DNA of 57,096 nt from a candidate division WOR-3 bacterium (GCA_020353055.1 CP070686.1:1420738-1477833); one strand, 5' to 3'. Positions 51,162 to 55,248 are shown, counted from the first letter of the stretch. The notes: generated by a model not told the origin, from the sequence alone. Made by a program: numbers and translations.

Positions 51162-53123
51162 TCAATCGATTAAGATGATCTTCGCTGTTCCAGAGGCGTC
51201 TTGTGTGTCGAGACGGGCAAAGTAAATACCGCTTGGCAGTTTTCTGCCCAGATCATCACATCCGTTCCACATGACTGATGACTGATGACCGATGACAGAT
51301 AGTTGCCCGAAATCCTTCACCATGCGTCCATCTGCACTGTAAATGCTCAGTCTGGCGCTCTCAGCCGTGCCCGGAACCTCGTAGCCGATACTGACCAGGC
51401 CATTGGTGACGGTCGGTTTGACATTGAGCATGATTCTCGATGACACCAGGCTCGGCGTGTCGTGTTCTTCGATGCCAGTCTGTCCAGGCTTAAAAGTGGT
51501 GTAGCGAAGTGCGAATCCATCGGTTATCTCAGCGGCAAGTGGGTGGTAGATAGCATCCCGGAAGTATTGGATACCAAAGAACTGGTCCGGGCTTTCGATA
51601 CCGACTGTGTTGTCATCTTGCTGCATTGCATTCAAGTATTGAACAACTATCTCTCCGTCGCCGGTCGGCGTTGTGTAGTAGGCAGGATCAAGCACTATAA
51701 TCTCGAAATTCTCTTCATAGCCGCTCGGGTAATGCTCCACGCGGAAATATTCAATGATGAAGCGGTGGTTAGGCGCGTCGTAGTAGGTGTAGACATCACC
51801 AGCCATACCAGAATTCCCCGGGTCGAGATCATCCCACAATCCTGCTATCATAGCATCCGGTCCATCAACATCAGGTATTCCGCTATTGGTCCAGTCGGCG
51901 CTCGTGGTTGATCCCATTGCCACCCATCCGTTGGAACATACGGTGATTTGGGAGTAATTGTTTCCGTAGTAAGTGAATGTGAATGGAAGTGAGACGGTAA
52001 CACTCTGGTTATCATAGAAATTCAGAGACGTGCCGGGATACGTGCTTTGCGTGGTGTCGATTGCTATCCAGTCAAAATCTGGTGATTCAAGATGTGGACC
52101 GCCGGAATAAAAGACATAGTAACGGCCCGTGTCGCTAGGCGCGGACATTCCGATATTAAGATCAAAATCAATTGTGTCTGCAAAGCCAGCGTCGGTTGCT
52201 ATAAGTCTAAACGATACAACATGCCCCTGAGGAGCGGCCGGACTTACGGCGACCACGTACGGGTCAGAAGCATTCTCCTTGATTTCGTCCACCGCTATGG
52301 CACCAAAACCCCCGGAGTTGTCCACGATATTAACACGCGGGTCAGCTGTGCTCAGTGTGGTCGATAGATCACCAAGGGGTGCACCGCCCATGTTTATCAA
52401 TGTTGCTGTCAGGTCGACTGTTTCGCCAGGATCCATGCAGCCATTGTTGTTGCCGCTTGCGTCGTAAACAGTTGTCTGAATGAGGACCAAATATGGATCT
52501 GTTCCGTCGTAACCAAGGACGATGTCGTCAGCGGAGACCTCCGCTGTTTCGGTCGCCCCTCAGCAACTGATCATTGTGTCCATCAGTGTTACTTTCACCT
52601 TGCTGACCTGTTCCGGGTCAACACCGGGTAGGTACATCAACTCATCGTCGATGTTGAAACTGTAGCTGTGCCAATCATCATCCGTCACCGGTAAGAGGTG
52701 CATCGTCGCACCATTTACCCATGGACATTCATCTGTCATGTTGGTCACTCTGGTTTCACCGAGCAACGCGCCATCACTATCCAGATAGCCGACTATTACT
52801 GCTGAAGCCGCCCATATGCCTGGGTAATTGTCCCAGGCATACATTGCCGCATCGAATGATACATTGATGTTCGTCGTCGGTATATCTGTAGTTTGATAAA
52901 GGATGGCGTGACCCATACCAGTTGTGCCAGTGCCGTATTTGTACAAATAGACCTCATTATCAGGGTCTGGGTGATACGCAGTGCCTCTTGTTATCGTGAC
53001 ATCTGTTCCGTATGATGATTGAAACCAACCTGGCGAAAGTGGCTGTTCAAAATCACCGTTGGTAATGTAGTTGGTAGCGCCGCATAAGCCGACAATTACG
53101 GCTAATACCAGGCAATACCTCAT
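51162..53123 (-). CDS. Secreted CBM-like/Ig/T9SS-CTD protein, putative selenoprotein (C-U motif, Sec188)
   Basis: AAAGGAGG SD, signal peptide, NGDFE domain ...MISC-TGA(52560-52562)-GATETAEVSADDIVL... in frame with the ORF 51162-52490; CTD WNGCDDLGRKLPSGIYF. Confidence 0.82.
51271..51298. repeat. 7-nt tandem repeat (ATGACnG x4) inside a CTD-coding region
   Basis: atgactg atgactg atgaccg atgacag. Confidence 0.6.
52529..52546 (-). promoter_or_regulatory. Putative bacterial SECIS element
   Basis: CAGCGGA-GGUC-UCCGCUG, 13 nt after UGA; possible lower stem AGGGGCGA/UCGUCCUU. Confidence 0.78.
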
Positions 53124-53201
53124 ATTCAACCTCCTTTCAGGGATTTTTATGCCATATCGACATACAATCCCTGCTTTTGGATTTATAACTACTATATGGG
53201 A

Positions 53202-53229
53202 ATAATAACAAAATTGGGGTTGGTGTCAA
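53202..53229 (-). promoter_or_regulatory. sigma70-type promoter
   Basis: TTGACA-N16-TATTAT. Confidence 0.5.
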
Positions 53230-53297
53230 GTGCCAATCGCCTGTAGGAGCGTCTGTCTTCGCAATCTATTGATATTCAATCATCTACAGGTAGTAAT

Positions 53298-53329
53298 AAA
53301 AAAGGGGGAGTACGTGAGTACTCCCCCTT
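53298..53329 (-). terminator. Rho-independent terminator
   Basis: AAGGGGGAGTAC-N4-GTACTCCCCCTT followed by a T-run on the minus strand. Confidence 0.85.
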
Positions 53330-53346
53330 GCCAGAGAAAAATATCT

Positions 53347-55248
53347 CTATTCGACCAGTATTATTTTCTGGGTTTCTGATTGATTTTCCGTATTCAATTT
53401 CACAAAGTATATGCCGGCTGGCAACCTACGACCCATATCGTCAGTGCCGTTCCAGAAAACAGATGACGCTTGATTATCGATACCTGATACCGGATCAAGT
53501 GCTTTGACCAAGCGGCCCATTGCGTCGTAGATTTTTAGCTCTATGTGTTCTCTACCATGTCCCGATACAAAGCTGATCTTGATCAGGTTGGAGAACGGAT
53601 TTGGAGCCACTTGGATAGTGGGTGTTTTCACGTCGAGTTTGGTTATTTCATCGACGCCCGTGGTTATGCCGAAGAAGTGCATTATGGAGTCGAGTAGTGC
53701 TTCTCTCGTAGAAGGCCCCGATGCATCGACAAGGCCGCCCAGTTCGAATGACAAGCCGACCGTCTTGTACCCTGCGTTTGCGTCATTGGCAACACCGCAA
53801 TCGTACATTTGATCACCGTCACGGAAGATTAAGAAGCCGGTACCGGTTGGACTGATGTGGTCGATGAAGGAGTTTTCGCCGGCATATTGGAAATTCATTT
53901 CGTCGGTGAAAGTGGTCATCTGTCCTACGAACGGGCCGCCATCACTGGTGCCATCATCAGTAGCGTTGATACCGAAGAGTGGGCAGAAATTGTAGCCGCT
54001 ACCCAGCGGATCATAATACCAAACATCACCGCCTTCGAGGTACATATTTCCGCCTGCTGTTAGATAATCTTCGAGCGCTGCTGCTTCCGGGCTTGTTGCT
54101 GTGATTACGTAATTGCTCGGGTAGATACCGACGCAGACGAATAAGGCACGGTACATCTCAAGGTCAGCACCTGACGGCAAGACGGTTGAGTAATTTCCGG
54201 TATAACCGAGATCGGACAAGATACTGTCCGTTGACATACCGGGTGCGGCTGTCGGGTCGGGATTCCAGACCATGAAATGATAGGAGCCGATAACGAAAGA
54301 GAAGTTGAAGGTATCGGAGAATGCACCGTCGTTTGCAATGAGCATGAAATCAGCGACGTGCCCTTGTGGCGTAGAGGTTCCAGCAGACAGCGTGTACGGA
54401 TCACTGGTATTTGTTTTTGTGCTGTCTACGGCGAGATACCCAAAGACACCGGAGTTATCAGTTATTGTGATGTAAGGGTCGCTTGACTCCAACGTTGTAG
54501 TAAGATTTGTGAAATCAACACCACCGATGTTCTTGATGGTTGCCGTTACGTCAACAGTCTCCCCAGGATCGATGCGTCCATTGTTGTTGCCGCTAACATC
54601 GAGAATCGTTCTCTCGAGGCAGGCAGCGTATGGATTTGAGCCAGTATAGTTGAGTACTACATCATCGGCGAAGACCTTCGCCGTCTCAAGCGTACCTCAG
54701 CCACTGTCCGCAAACCCGTACAGGGAAACTTCAATACATGCGATGTCTGTTGGATTGATCCCCGGTAGGTTGCTCAATTCAGTATTGATGTTGAATGCAT
54801 AATCATGCCAGTTAGAATCAGCAACCTGGATAAGACTGGACGTAGGACCGCTTGTCCATGGACATGCATAGCTGGCGGCATAGATCTTAGTGTCGCCCAG
54901 CAGATCACCCGTGTCATCCAGATAGGCGATGATCAGTGCGCCGGCTGCCCAGCAAGTCGTCGAATTACTCGAAGCATAGAGTTTGAGCGAGGCTGAGAAA
55001 TCAAGGTCAGTGGTCGGGATGTAGGTCATTTGATGTAATTTAACATAACCATCACCAGTACCCTTGTAGGCATAGACTTCATAATCCGGGTCAGGGTCAT
55101 ACGTCGTAGAACGATCGATGCTTGTGTTGTCGCCACTTTCTATCTGTGACCATCCAACACTCAAGTCCTGCTCGAAATCGCCGTTGGTAAGCAGTACACT
55201 GGCACTACCAAAAGCAACGAGCAATAATAGAATGAGATATCGGTGCAT
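53347..55248 (-). CDS. Secreted CBM-like/Ig/T9SS-CTD protein, putative selenoprotein (G-U-G, Sec184); paralog of 51162-53123
   Basis: Signal peptide, NGDFE domain ...FADSG-TGA(54697-54699)-GTLETAKVFADDVVL... open and in frame through to the ORF 53347-54492; CTD WNGTDDMGRRLPAGIYF. Confidence 0.82.
54666..54683 (-). promoter_or_regulatory. Putative bacterial SECIS element
   Basis: CGGCGAA-GGUC-UUCGCCG, 13 nt after UGA; two compensatory pairs versus the 52529-52546 hairpin. Confidence 0.78.

Follow-up and report, generated by a model that had tools for sequence, protein, structure and literature searches.

Two neighbouring genes of a candidate division WOR-3 bacterium, which lie within the 57,096-nucleotide stretch analysed here (GCA_020353055.1 CP070686.1:1420738-1477833; in the following, the window), are, as judged from their sequences and those of their relatives, members of a real, widespread and uncatalogued selenoprotein family of type IX secretion system (T9SS) cargo. 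In our assessment, the two proteins as a whole are probably best explained as T9SS cargo that carries selenocysteine (Sec, U) in a jelly-roll of ~185 residues resembling a carbohydrate-binding module (CBM), where Sec and a Cys form a putative site.

Genes A and B are arranged in tandem on the minus strand (Table 1), and each contains a single in-frame TGA, which falls in the same column of the N-terminal domain in both. In both proteins, a predicted signal peptide is followed by the Sec jelly-roll, an Ig-like domain, a middle domain (NIDO-like in A, GATase1/ThuA-like in B) and a T9SS C-terminal sorting domain (CTD). When TGA is translated as U, both share the motifs NGDFE, PDPDxEVY, IPTT, WAA, LLGxT, CPW, WHxYxFNI and LPG, after which S-(C/G)-U-G-x-x-E-T-A-x-V-x-A-D-D and then GNNNGxxDPGE follow. 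This agrees with an earlier note on this DNA, in which the motif series and the common TGA column of the paralogs had been described, with the TGA at codon 184 in B and codon 188 in A (counted from the ATG at 53123, corresponding to U190 from the TTG at 53129). Profile searches and homologue comparison also recovered both the Ig module and the T9SS CTD claimed there, and the Ig-like module of gene B is present in most full-length homologues (BLASTP). While the C-terminus belongs to the Por_Secre_tail/FlgD_ig type in both proteins, their middle domains differ. That of gene B, modelled by AlphaFold2 with a pLDDT of 85.7 and matched by Foldseek with a TMq of 0.51-0.59, shows 36-89% identity across 36 homologues; for that of gene A, a Pfam search gave no match, and the nearest Atlas clusters (score 0.86) contain PF06119 NIDO in 18-43% of their members. 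Among 70 full-length homologues, the B-type architecture was found in 36 and the A-type architecture in 12.

Table 1. Positions in the window of the genes, codons, domains and nucleic acid signals discussed in the text.
Feature	Position	Strand	Remarks
Gene B	53347..55248	-	633-aa selenoprotein, residue U184, stop TAA
Sec codon TGA, gene B (U184)	54697..54699	-	
N-terminal Sec jelly-roll domain, gene B (residues 19-201)	54646..55194	-	CBM-like fold (AlphaFold2)
SECIS hairpin, gene B	54666..54683	-	CGGCGAA-GGUC-UUCGCCG; stem from 13 nt, loop 20 nt past UGA
Ig-like (CARDB-like) module, gene B, with GNNNGxxDPGE	54349..54636	-	weak CARDB match, E 0.15
Middle domain, gene B	53605..54360	-	flavodoxin-like, class I glutamine-amidotransferase-like predicted fold (GH42 trimerisation, ThuA, IFT52-N type)
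T9SS type A C-terminal sorting domain, gene B	53356..53610	-	TIGR04183 and PF18962
Intrinsic-terminator-like hairpin 3' of gene B	53302..53329	-	12 bp and T run
Sigma-70-like promoter 5' of gene A	53202..53229	-	TTGACA-16-TATTAT with TG; 11/12 matches, consensus match only
Gene A	51162..53129	-	paralogous selenoprotein; true stop TGA 51162..51164
Sec codon TGA, gene A	52560..52562	-	Cys directly before, giving a CU dyad
N-terminal Sec jelly-roll domain, gene A	52509..53069	-	48% identity to gene B domain
SECIS hairpin, gene A	52529..52546	-	CAGCGGA-GGUC-UCCGCUG; spacing as in gene B
Middle domain, gene A, NIDO-like (lead only)	51435..52229	-	nearest Atlas clusters
T9SS type A sorting domain, gene A	51174..51407	-	TIGR04183 and PF13860
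Terminator-like hairpin directly 3' of gene A TGA stop	51122..51143	-	9 bp and T run
Flanking Omp28-related relatives (distant) with UxxC	55263..56324 and 50355..51065		one also with T9SS CTD
SprA gene	12133..17526		

The N-terminal domain was predicted by AlphaFold2 with a pLDDT of 97.4 to form a CBM-like jelly-roll, and its VIA matches are tailspike and CBM modules at 8-18% sequence identity, with Z scores of 14.6 (5w6h_A, rmsd 2.5, 141 aligned), 13.1 (8xmz_B), 12.0 (2zew_A) and 10.5 (1gui_A), which bears out the previously claimed non-thioredoxin fold. In the model, Sec (U166 in model numbering) is located in a loop between strands 153-163 and 170-182, so the last strand does lie past the TGA, as had been proposed. 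The fold corresponds to that of beta-sandwich jelly-roll CBMs (CBM4, CBM16, a porphyran-binding CBM and phage tailspike C-terminal domains), and the domain starts with NGDFE and closes with an ADDxxL strand. However, it is matched by no Pfam family, CBM or other, at E <= 1 and by no NCBIfam family; sugar binding is putative.

Both proteins begin with hydrophobic N-termini (MHRYLILLLLVAFGSASV and MRYCLVLAVIVGLCGA), read by eye as putative signal peptides of the Sec type. The CTD of gene B is supported by TIGR04183 with 46 bits (cut-off 23) and PF18962 with 38.9 bits (cut-off 27), while that of gene A scores 23.0 bits with TIGR04183, exactly at the cut-off of 23, and remains below the cut-off of 27 with both PF18962 (14.9 bits) and PF13860 (26.3 bits). 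T9SS machinery is encoded in the genome (PorU, 446.7 bits, cut-off 420; SprA, 390 bits summed, cut-off 200), with the SprA gene inside the window. By analogy to established T9SS biology, the signal peptide would bring the A and B proteins to the periplasm, and SprA and PorU would then export them and anchor them at the cell surface.

Evidence for the decoding of the TGA comes from its conservation, from an RNA hairpin behind it and from the distribution of the family. The phylum was covered with 272 genomes, of which 107 contain the domain, and among 262 matches the 150 listed all have the in-frame TGA. Of the homologous frames taken from phylum genomes, 58 of 59 show TGA in the Sec column. 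Named public genome contigs gave 43 frames, 42 of them with TGA there and the 43rd ending at a contig edge before the column; therefore, the TGA is not there by chance. These two sets overlap partly and, together with the two window genes, yield 88 distinct N-terminal domains out of 103, of which 87 carry U. A 463-base contig from an independent DNA run is identical across the gene B TGA, which an RNA-library contig of 372 bases bridges as well, although this library may include DNA. Among the homologues examined, none has TAA or TAG at the Sec column and all keep the frame across the TGA, in contrast to the split homologues with TAA or TAG that had been named beforehand as a refutation.

In both paralogs, the TGA is followed by a hairpin with a 7-bp stem and a GGUC loop, whose stems differ by compensatory changes. 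The rules for bacterial SECIS elements given in PMC13188914 comprise a loop 3-9 nt long and bearing G at its first two positions, a stem of 4-16 bp, 16-37 nt from UGA to loop and an MFE <= -7.5 kcal/mol. Both hairpins agree with these rules (loop GGUC, stem 7 bp, spacing 20 nt), with the folding energies of -25.1 and -16.8 kcal/mol being those of 70-nt folds, wider than the hairpin itself. Over 46 distinct hairpins, 91.9% of cells are paired compared to 82.4% in shuffles, and 33 double-change cells were observed compared to 6.7, with neither value reached in any of 500 shuffles. Compensatory changes occur in 4 of the 7 stem pairs, slid registers pair only 21.7-60.9%, and GGTC forms the loop of 42 among 45 distinct hairpins. 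No SECIS family matching the hairpin was found in Rfam. Across the family, the hairpin (6-7 bp) is embedded in the codons for T-A-(K/E/R)-V-(F/S/L)-A-D. If our reading of the codon layout is right, the covarying pairs at columns 9-18 and 6-21 connect third positions of codons, and selection on the protein then cannot account for their covariation. The motif after Sec had been regarded as the signature of a jelly-roll strand. While the strand itself is borne out, A-x-V-x-A-D is not purely a fold signature, because K/F, E/S and R/L are encoded by codons that pair with each other and nearly every Val codon is GUC, so that the motif is largely imposed by the SECIS RNA. K/F, E/S and R/L in a protein strand thus represent a clean natural case of RNA structure dictating amino-acid covariation.

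Furthermore, the genome encodes selA (551 bits), selB (346 bits), selD (317 bits) and tRNA-Sec (75 bits), all above curated cut-offs, with selD itself containing one TGA. Across the phylum, selA is present in 101 of the 107 family-positive genomes, whereas only 6 of 150 genomes without selA contain the family, 4 of these six having tRNA-Sec or selB; selA-less lineages are devoid of the family. In two family-positive genomes, G128 (96% complete, 300 contigs) and G159 (76% complete), searches for selA, selB and a clear tRNA-Sec found none of them, and in the single-contig genome G133, selB is present while selA and tRNA-Sec were not found. Taken together, the covarying hairpin, the complete machinery and the co-distribution with selA strongly back the claim of Sec decoding. 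From these sequence data, UGA is very probably decoded as Sec via a canonical bacterial SECIS of the kind read by SelB; given the SECIS and the genome's selA, selB, selD and tRNA-Sec, the ribosome would therefore read on through the downstream domains.

Every one of the 87 distinct Sec domains contains a candidate Cys partner, either locally (53), in the TCW motif (20) or at both positions (14). A Cys at -1, forming an x-C-U-G dyad, is found in gene A and in 60 of the 87 domains (all such classes counted), whereas 20 domains, including gene B, lack the adjacent Cys and have the distal Cys instead; one clade carries C-U-x-G-H-C, which packs a His and two Cys together with Sec into six residues. 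The earlier note had considered the adjacent C and the CPW and CWAA cysteines as partners, and this complementarity pattern favors the 'TTCWAA' Cys as the distal one, although the independent events behind this Cys-partner rule are few (at least 4 changes of the local Cys; 2 to 4 independent pairs; sign test p = 1). Sec, in the loop between the last two strands, would act jointly with a Cys in a vicinal CU, CxxU, UxxC or distal 'TCW' arrangement, and the two would form a selenenylsulfide or selenolate-thiolate pair, a putative redox-active site on a ligand-binding scaffold at the surface of an anaerobe's cell. The genes flanking A and B encode Omp28-related UxxC selenoproteins and a redoxin. 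The flanking UxxC genes score 31.7 and 44.8 bits against NF045500, below its cut-off of 200, and an Omp28-like neighbor was found in 20 of 99 related loci (within 1.5-2.5 kb flanks). The pair may be held reduced by these adjoining exported thioredoxin-fold proteins (Omp28-related UxxC selenoproteins, TlpA-like redoxin). Most likely, we infer, the chemistry is that of a Sec-Cys redox or soft-ligand site; its narrower assignment to a redox-active surface site, made from sequence patterns, is plausible but tentative and falls somewhat short of an even call.

A possible but less favored reading is that Sec is a soft ligand and not a redox center, with the selenolate and a nearby Cys (in some clades His) binding metal or chalcogen species (Cu, Zn, Hg, Ni, As, sulfide, polysulfide or selenium) for capture, sensing or detoxification. 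Consistent with this, CU is the Sec motif of the CopZ-like 2Fe-2S protein, the MerB-like SaoL, HgcA, SaoC and MbdU in Table 1 of PMC13188914, the C-U-x-G-H-C clade offers several ligands, the variable spacing of the partner Cys suits chelation as well as an Se-S bond, and the scaffold is a binding-module fold. However, the His is not conserved family-wide, and no metal transporter or metal-resistance gene was found beside A and B, whose neighbors are thioredoxin-fold redox proteins.

Homologues carrying Cys instead of Sec, which normally mark a selenoprotein family, are all but missing among the sequences compared here. Only 1 of 15 full-length TGA-free relatives (P0086) has Cys at the Sec column, with the loop alignment being uncertain; the others have A, P, I, D, E, S, Y, G or a gap, and a Sec-less paralog in genome G108 has no Cys there either. 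This bears on a second alternative, in which Sec is genuine but has a structural role alone, as a selenenylsulfide staple that stabilises the last hairpin of an otherwise ordinary CBM. Such a staple accords with the ever-present partner Cys, with the binding-module fold and with Sec-less relatives that share the fold signature, but appears improbable: Sec is costly and a disulfide would serve equally well, yet Cys replacement is almost never seen, and selA-less lineages possess no Cys forms as substitutes for the missing family, which argues for selenium-only chemistry.

Even less probable is that the TGA is an ordinary stop, ending a secreted jelly-roll fragment of ~185 aa, with a separate or untranslated downstream frame and a hairpin acting as a transcriptional or translational pause element. 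Public gene calls conform to this, since most of at least 150 representatives listed are ~180-195 aa long and end at the column, and 116 of 120 downstream-part relatives listed are fragments of 311-456 aa; moreover, stand-alone short forms with only ~20 residues past the TGA exist (L048, L049 and L051). However, inspection by eye showed no separate signal peptide on the downstream part, although this part is closed by a T9SS sorting domain, the model places the last beta-strand of the fold past the TGA, and terminator-like sites are located 3' of each whole gene, with none listed at either TGA. The unbroken frame in the homologues, the association with selA and the agreement with the SECIS rules likewise speak against a stop. 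Assignment of a standard amino acid to TGA, such as the Trp or Gly of genetic codes 4 and 25, is echoed by one public homologue record (P0252, 628 aa), translated with W at the column, but is hardly credible, because gene A stops on TGA with a terminator behind, so that TGA is not recoded genome-wide, the window's large genes are TGA-free in frame, TGA read-through mostly adds frames rich in odd codons, every family gene contains just one TGA, always in the conserved column, and a full Sec machinery is encoded.

Public records of relatives derive from candidate division WOR-3, Stahlbacteria and Cloacimonadota, with a few titled Thermoanaerobaculales or Eisenbacteria, and the gene is also present in sediment metagenomes from several studies. 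In public annotation, the gene is split at the TGA or the TGA is read as W, a mis-annotation probably explained by the near-absence of Cys forms together with the jelly-roll setting.

We also compared the family with known selenoproteins. Like the SelB-decoded selenoproteins of the FdhF type (Escherichia coli), A and B combine UGA with a small stem-loop, a G at the start of the apical loop, 20-nt spacing and a full machinery; the apical loop of the fdhF SECIS is also GGUC. In contrast to the FdhF type, they are neither thioredoxin-fold proteins nor metal-cofactor enzymes but exported CBM-like jelly-rolls almost without Cys homologues. A vicinal Cys-Sec followed by Gly is shared with catalogued 'CU' selenoproteins (SaoL, SaoC, HgcA, MbdU, the Csac_0668 family and KCU-star), and the x-C-U-G dyad of gene A with the GCUG end of mammalian thioredoxin reductase, in which the dyad forms an electron-shuttling selenenylsulfide. 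Neither shows any sequence or fold relation to the A/B family, whose dyad is part of a beta-hairpin loop rather than of a flexible C-terminal end. The Omp28-related selenoprotein (NF045500; 'hypothetical protein GOS_C' in Table 1 of PMC13188914) is, like A and B, an exported selenoprotein of such organisms, but has a thioredoxin-like fold with UxxC near the N-terminus, and a search of genes A and B against NF045500 gave no match. Precedents for Sec outside the cytoplasm are provided in the same table by the FCYXU-type TonB-dependent receptor, the GSU2204/MtrB-PioB outer-membrane barrel and the ExtKL cytochrome; these, however, have other folds, and none is a T9SS cargo or a soluble surface-displayed binding module. 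Neither the A/B family nor any CBM is among the 119 selenoprotein families in Table 1 of this 2026 catalogue, and NCBIfam likewise lacks the family, in keeping with the earlier note, which did not recognise it as a described one.

According to the 2026 review (PMC13188914), most prokaryotic selenoproteins characterized so far adopt a thioredoxin-like fold, and selenoprotein search pipelines lean on Cys-containing homologues. The A/B family departs from both, with Sec in a CBM-like jelly-roll and Cys forms almost absent. Its recognition would correct hundreds of gene models and enlarge the selenoproteomes of uncultured sediment bacteria, and it raises the tractable question of what a selenol is capable of, compared with a thiol, outside the cell of an anaerobe. 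A more speculative extension from the sequence data, which we regard as rather unlikely, is that the domain is a Sec-obligate, surface-displayed selenol module with Sec-Cys extracellular chemistry and a dedicated trans-envelope relay for its re-reduction. Such a module could capture or reduce sulfur, polysulfide, selenium, metal species or disulfide-bonded substrates, and the proposed relay members are the Omp28-related UxxC proteins, the TlpA-like redoxin and a membrane polyferredoxin of the NapH type whose gene lies alongside. If true, a carbohydrate-binding-module scaffold would for the first time be seen to carry a selenoenzyme-like function, and cysteine would here be unable to replace selenocysteine.

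Genes A and B are tandem paralogs, and each carries an internal in-frame TGA near the end of an N-terminal jelly-roll domain of ~185 residues (hereafter the N-domain, with the TGA position referred to as the column). All sequence motifs described in the earlier note were recovered in both genes, with the TGA at codon 184 in gene B and, numbered from the likely ATG, at codon 188 in gene A. The C-terminus of gene B matched the sorting domain Por_Secre_tail/TIGR04183 above the Pfam and NCBIfam cut-offs and that of gene A exactly at the cut-off, and both C-termini were also matched by FlgD_ig. 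No Pfam or NCBIfam match was obtained for the N-terminal 200 residues of either protein, leaving the C-terminus as the only recognised part. Since a terminator-like hairpin follows each gene and a promoter of near-consensus type lies upstream of gene A, the two genes look like separate transcription units. Recoding of TGA throughout the genome was considered and rejected, given that gene A itself ends on a TGA with a terminator-like hairpin behind it; in this gene, TGA demonstrably doubles as a stop.

Genes A and B, their signals and neighbouring or functionally related features. Coordinates refer to the window unless a contig is given.
Feature	Coordinates	Strand	Remarks
SprA/Sov T9SS translocon	12133..17526	+	1797-aa ORF; TIGR04189, 390 bits summed
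NapH-like membrane polyferredoxin gene	47133..48059	-	Fer4_5
DUF6029 outer-membrane-like gene	48318..49901	-	
AhpC/TSA-redoxin (TlpA-like) gene	49849..50358	-	CxxC motif
Omp28-like lipoprotein-type gene	50355..51065	-	in-frame TGA in D-D-M-U-P-F-C (UxxC)
Terminator-like hairpin and T-run	51122..51143	-	3' of gene A TGA stop
Second TGA of gene A	51162..51164	-	end of gene A
Gene A	51162..53129	-	likely ATG at 53123
Internal TGA of gene A	52560..52562	-	only internal TGA of gene A
Terminator-like hairpin and T-run	53302..53329	-	3' of gene B stop
Gene B	53347..55248	-	633 residues when the single in-frame TGA is read through
Internal TGA of gene B	54697..54699	-	
Omp28-like gene	55263..56324	-	in-frame TGA in E-G-U-G-S-C (UxxC); T9SS CTD
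Omp28-like gene	56341..57096	-	runs off the window end
selD	G000:C1:461771-462676	-	window's own genome, outside the window; one in-frame TGA in V-K-C-A-G-U-A-S-K-L

A 224-residue N-terminal query found only genes A and B in the window's genome, and 262 matches in 107 of the 272 genomes of the phylum. Among the matches listed, an in-frame TGA was present in all 150 (149 with one, 1 with two). In five genomes with weak matches, the TGA lay inside the aligned part in 5 of 7 matches, and locus L047 has a TGA just past it; L050, from genome G108, is a Sec-less paralog whose loop contains neither Sec nor Cys. At the homologous column, U was found in 58 of the 59 matching frames of the phylum loci. 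Furthermore, named public genome contigs yielded 42 loci with U in 42 of 43 matching frames, the 43rd being ended by a contig edge; their titles name Candidatus Stahlbacteria, Candidatus Cloacimonadota, Thermoanaerobaculales, Candidatus Eisenbacteria and 'Desulfuromonas sp. SDB', although such bin labels may err. When 15 full-length TGA-free relatives were aligned, a single one (P0086) had Cys at the column, the others showing A, P, I, D, E, S, Y, G or a gap. The family is apparently Sec-obligate.

In both genes, a 7-bp stem starts 13 bases past the internal TGA and is closed by a GGUC loop (CGGCGAA-GGUC-UUCGCCG in gene B and CAGCGGA-GGUC-UCCGCUG in gene A), and the two base pairs that differ between the stems are both compensatory. 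These features match the consensus bacterial SECIS, which combines a 4-16 bp stem with a loop of 3-9 nt opening with G and then G or U and is spaced 16-37 nt from the UGA (PMC13188914). By our reading, the loop lies 17-26 nt past the UGA in 57 of 58 homologues, the outlier being L047 with ~41 nt. For an analysis of covariation, 46 distinct 26-nt hairpin windows from homologues were aligned, anchored on the peptide motif. Paired cells amounted to 91.9% compared with 82.4% in column shuffles, and cells changed on both sides numbered 33 against an expected 6.7, neither value being reached in any of 500 shuffles. Compensatory types occurred in 4 of 7 stem pairs, and pairing fell to 21.7-60.9% once the 3' arm was shifted by 1-3 columns. 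An Rfam search in evalue mode over 50000..57096 returned no SECIS family and only five chance-level matches.

The hairpin occupies the codons of T-A-x-V-x-A-D, the two x residues of which covary as base-pairing codons. In 58 sequences, the pairs were K(AAG)+F(TTC/TTT) in 34, E(GAG)+S(TCN) in 11, R(AGG)+L(CTC/CTT) in 6, Q(CAG)+C(TGT) in 1 and E+F, a G-U wobble, in 4, with 2 exceptions; GUC encodes Val in 42 of 45 distinct hairpins. By our reading of the codon layout, covariation would also link the third bases of the first Ala codon and the F/S/L codon, as well as those of the codon before the first Ala and the second Ala codon. If so, these two pairs join third-codon positions, and selection at the protein level cannot explain them. 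That A-x-V-x-A-D is merely a signature of the fold was considered and dropped in favor of an RNA constraint, given the covarying base-paired codons. The motif is looser in TGA-free relatives, which fits the idea that its strictness in Sec forms is imposed by the RNA. In short stand-alone forms of the jelly-roll (216-218 aa; L048, L049 and L105 at 1944-2597), Sec lies ~20 residues from the C-terminus, and the peptide of L051 similarly ends ~20 residues past U; here, the SECIS takes up nearly all of the remaining coding sequence.

The window's genome, a single contig of 2.69 Mb that is 96.9% complete, encodes SelB (346 bits), SelA (551 bits) and SelD (317 bits) as well as a tRNA-Sec (75 bits) that adjoins selB, each above its curated cut-off. 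SelD is a selenoprotein too, and past the TGA of its gene lies a small hairpin whose loop has G in second place. Across the phylum, selA was found in 122 of 272 genomes, with tallies per taxonomic family that nearly coincide with those of the N-domain: selA was present in 101 of the 107 genomes with an N-domain, and an N-domain occurred in just 6 of the 150 genomes that lack selA. Of these, G145 and G223 carry a clear tRNA-Sec, and G133 and G221 carry selB; in G128 and G159, both fragmented assemblies, no selA, selB or clear tRNA-Sec was detected. G133, a single-contig relative, carries two TGA-containing copies together with selB, but neither selA at E <= 1e-30 nor a tRNA-Sec above cut-off, reflecting either an assembly gap or a decaying Sec trait. 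Lineages without selA have zero copies of the N-domain (e.g., 0/11 in f4, 0/14 in f15 and 0/12 in f28), and no Cys versions were found in its place there.

Public gene models mostly record these genes in pieces. A search of 1.84 billion library representatives gave 192 matching proteins at E <= 0.001, and most of the 150 listed are ~180-195 residues long and terminate at the column, indicating that gene callers took the TGA for a stop. The part of gene B after the N-domain has 313 relatives at E <= 1e-10, and 116 of the 120 listed are fragments of 311-456 residues. Most public records are divided at the TGA into pieces of ~185 aa and ~440 aa. Where names are given, the downstream relatives are assigned to candidate division WOR-3 and are called 'hypothetical protein', 'T9SS type A sorting domain-containing protein' or 'FlgD immunoglobulin-like domain containing protein'; none of the named ones listed is labelled a selenoprotein. 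The full-length public record P0252 has W at the Sec column, so its contig was translated with TGA as Trp. That each locus comprises two separate genes divided at the internal TGA was weighed as an alternative and rejected.

Sediment metagenomes contain the gene, with at least half of its sampled words found in eight runs, which belong to three studies and the possible source study. A 372-base contig from a metatranscriptome library spans the TGA, which is intact, although DNA carry-over in this library is possible; an independent DNA run yielded a contig of 463 bases that is identical to gene B across the TGA. The contigs of the four runs cover parts of gene B only, and the stretches left uncovered carry no evidence either way. 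The RNA runs X18-X20 were set aside as evidence for expression or habitat, as their word shares were small.

For structure prediction, residues 19-201 of gene B were folded with a 55-row alignment, resulting in an all-beta sandwich with a mean pLDDT of 97.4. Together with Foldseek and a wide VIA search, which placed the domain among CBM-type jelly-rolls, this bears out the earlier proposal of a non-thioredoxin, CBM-like jelly-roll. The matches include the C-terminal domain of a phage tailspike (5w6h_A; Z 14.6, rmsd 2.5, 141 aligned), a porphyran-binding CBM (8xmz_B; Z 13.1), CBM16 (2zew_A; Z 12.0) and CBM4 (1gui_A; Z 10.5), with a sequence identity of 8-18%. In the model, the loop joining strands 153-163 and 170-182 holds U166 (model numbering); the last strand is therefore encoded 3' of the TGA, as had been suggested from the sequence.

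Behind the N-domain, architectures vary: 70 full-length homologues comprised 36 with the middle domain of gene B, 12 with that of gene A and 22 with another or none, some consisting of the N-domain alone or of the N-domain plus CTD. The middle domain of gene B is predicted (pLDDT 85.7) to adopt a flavodoxin-like fold like that of class I glutamine amidotransferases, and the model resembles the GH42 trimerisation domain, ThuA-like proteins and the N-terminus of IFT52; for gene A, an Atlas lead alone hints at a NIDO-like domain. In P0261, P0263 and P0273, the CTD and the middle domain of gene B, which is well conserved, stand behind quite different N-terminal Ig-type modules without the Sec jelly-roll, which identifies the Sec domain as a swappable N-terminal module. 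With respect to export, PorU was identified in the window's genome (447 bits), and the SprA/Sov ORF lies ~34 kb away from the selenoprotein cargo genes.

The earlier note had suggested a Cys partner for Sec. Among 88 distinct N-domains, 87 have U, and all 87 carry either a local Cys, i.e., within four residues of Sec, or a Cys at the distal TCW column (Cys81 of the model, immediately ahead of strand 82-92): 53 have only the local Cys, 20 only the TCW Cys, 14 both and 0 neither. Accordingly, the TCW Cys is present in 20 of the 20 domains that lack a local Cys, including gene B (SGUG). A need of Sec for a thiol partner, together with contact between the TCW and Sec loops, would produce such a pattern. 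With the Cys columns excluded from tree building, at least 4 changes were counted for the local Cys and at least 8 for the TCW Cys; testing whether the two positions evolved in a correlated manner yielded 2 to 4 independent pairs (sign test p = 1, low power), and with so few pairs the partner rule is an observation only. The Sec-Cys site would most likely act as a redox pair, the main rival being the binding of a soft ligand.

The flanking UxxC Omp28-like genes, which encode thioredoxin-fold proteins, have a small G-loop hairpin after each TGA and are distant matches of the NCBIfam model NF045500 'Omp28-related selenoprotein' (31.7 and 44.8 bits; cut-off 200). Counting genes A and B, a segment of ~8 kb inside the window contains four selenoprotein genes. 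When the window was scanned strictly for TGA-plus-hairpin genes, genes A and B and three likely spurious frames were returned; the Omp28-like genes escape such a scan, as they have U too close to the N-terminus. An Omp28-like gene was found inside the 1.5-2.5 kb flanks of 20 of 99 related loci; as the loci are kin to each other, the linkage is recurrent but does not amount to independent proof. Within these short flanks, TlpA was beside an N-domain gene at only 2 of 99 loci. The redoxin, DUF6029 and NapH-like genes at 47133..50358 plausibly form a set supplying electrons to the envelope.

Table 1 of PMC13188914, which catalogues 119 prokaryotic selenoprotein families and subfamilies, has no CBM-like, Ig-bearing or T9SS-sorted entry, in agreement with the earlier impression that the family had not been described. 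Its nearest entries are the Omp28-related family, metal-related families with a 'CU' motif and a few envelope proteins; the selenoprotein-neighbourhood families of Haft and Tolstoy were compared as they appear in its rows. According to its description, deep-Sep keeps a candidate only if Sec homologues of it are known or the top ten hits include two or more Cys homologues, and it may miss families without Cys homologues; the jelly-roll family would not pass a filter of this kind. BSepDB counts 111 families compiled from earlier reports. A literature search for Cloacimonas, Stahlbacteria, WOR-3, T9SS and CBM selenoproteins found no description of the family, which the supplementary lists of deep-Sep or BSepDB might nevertheless name.

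Taken together, the internal TGA of genes A and B is a real feature, and its recoding mechanism is, as far as sequence analysis allows support, the standard bacterial one. The novelty lies in the protein, a widespread Sec family in which Sec resides on the CBM-like jelly-roll of T9SS surface cargo.
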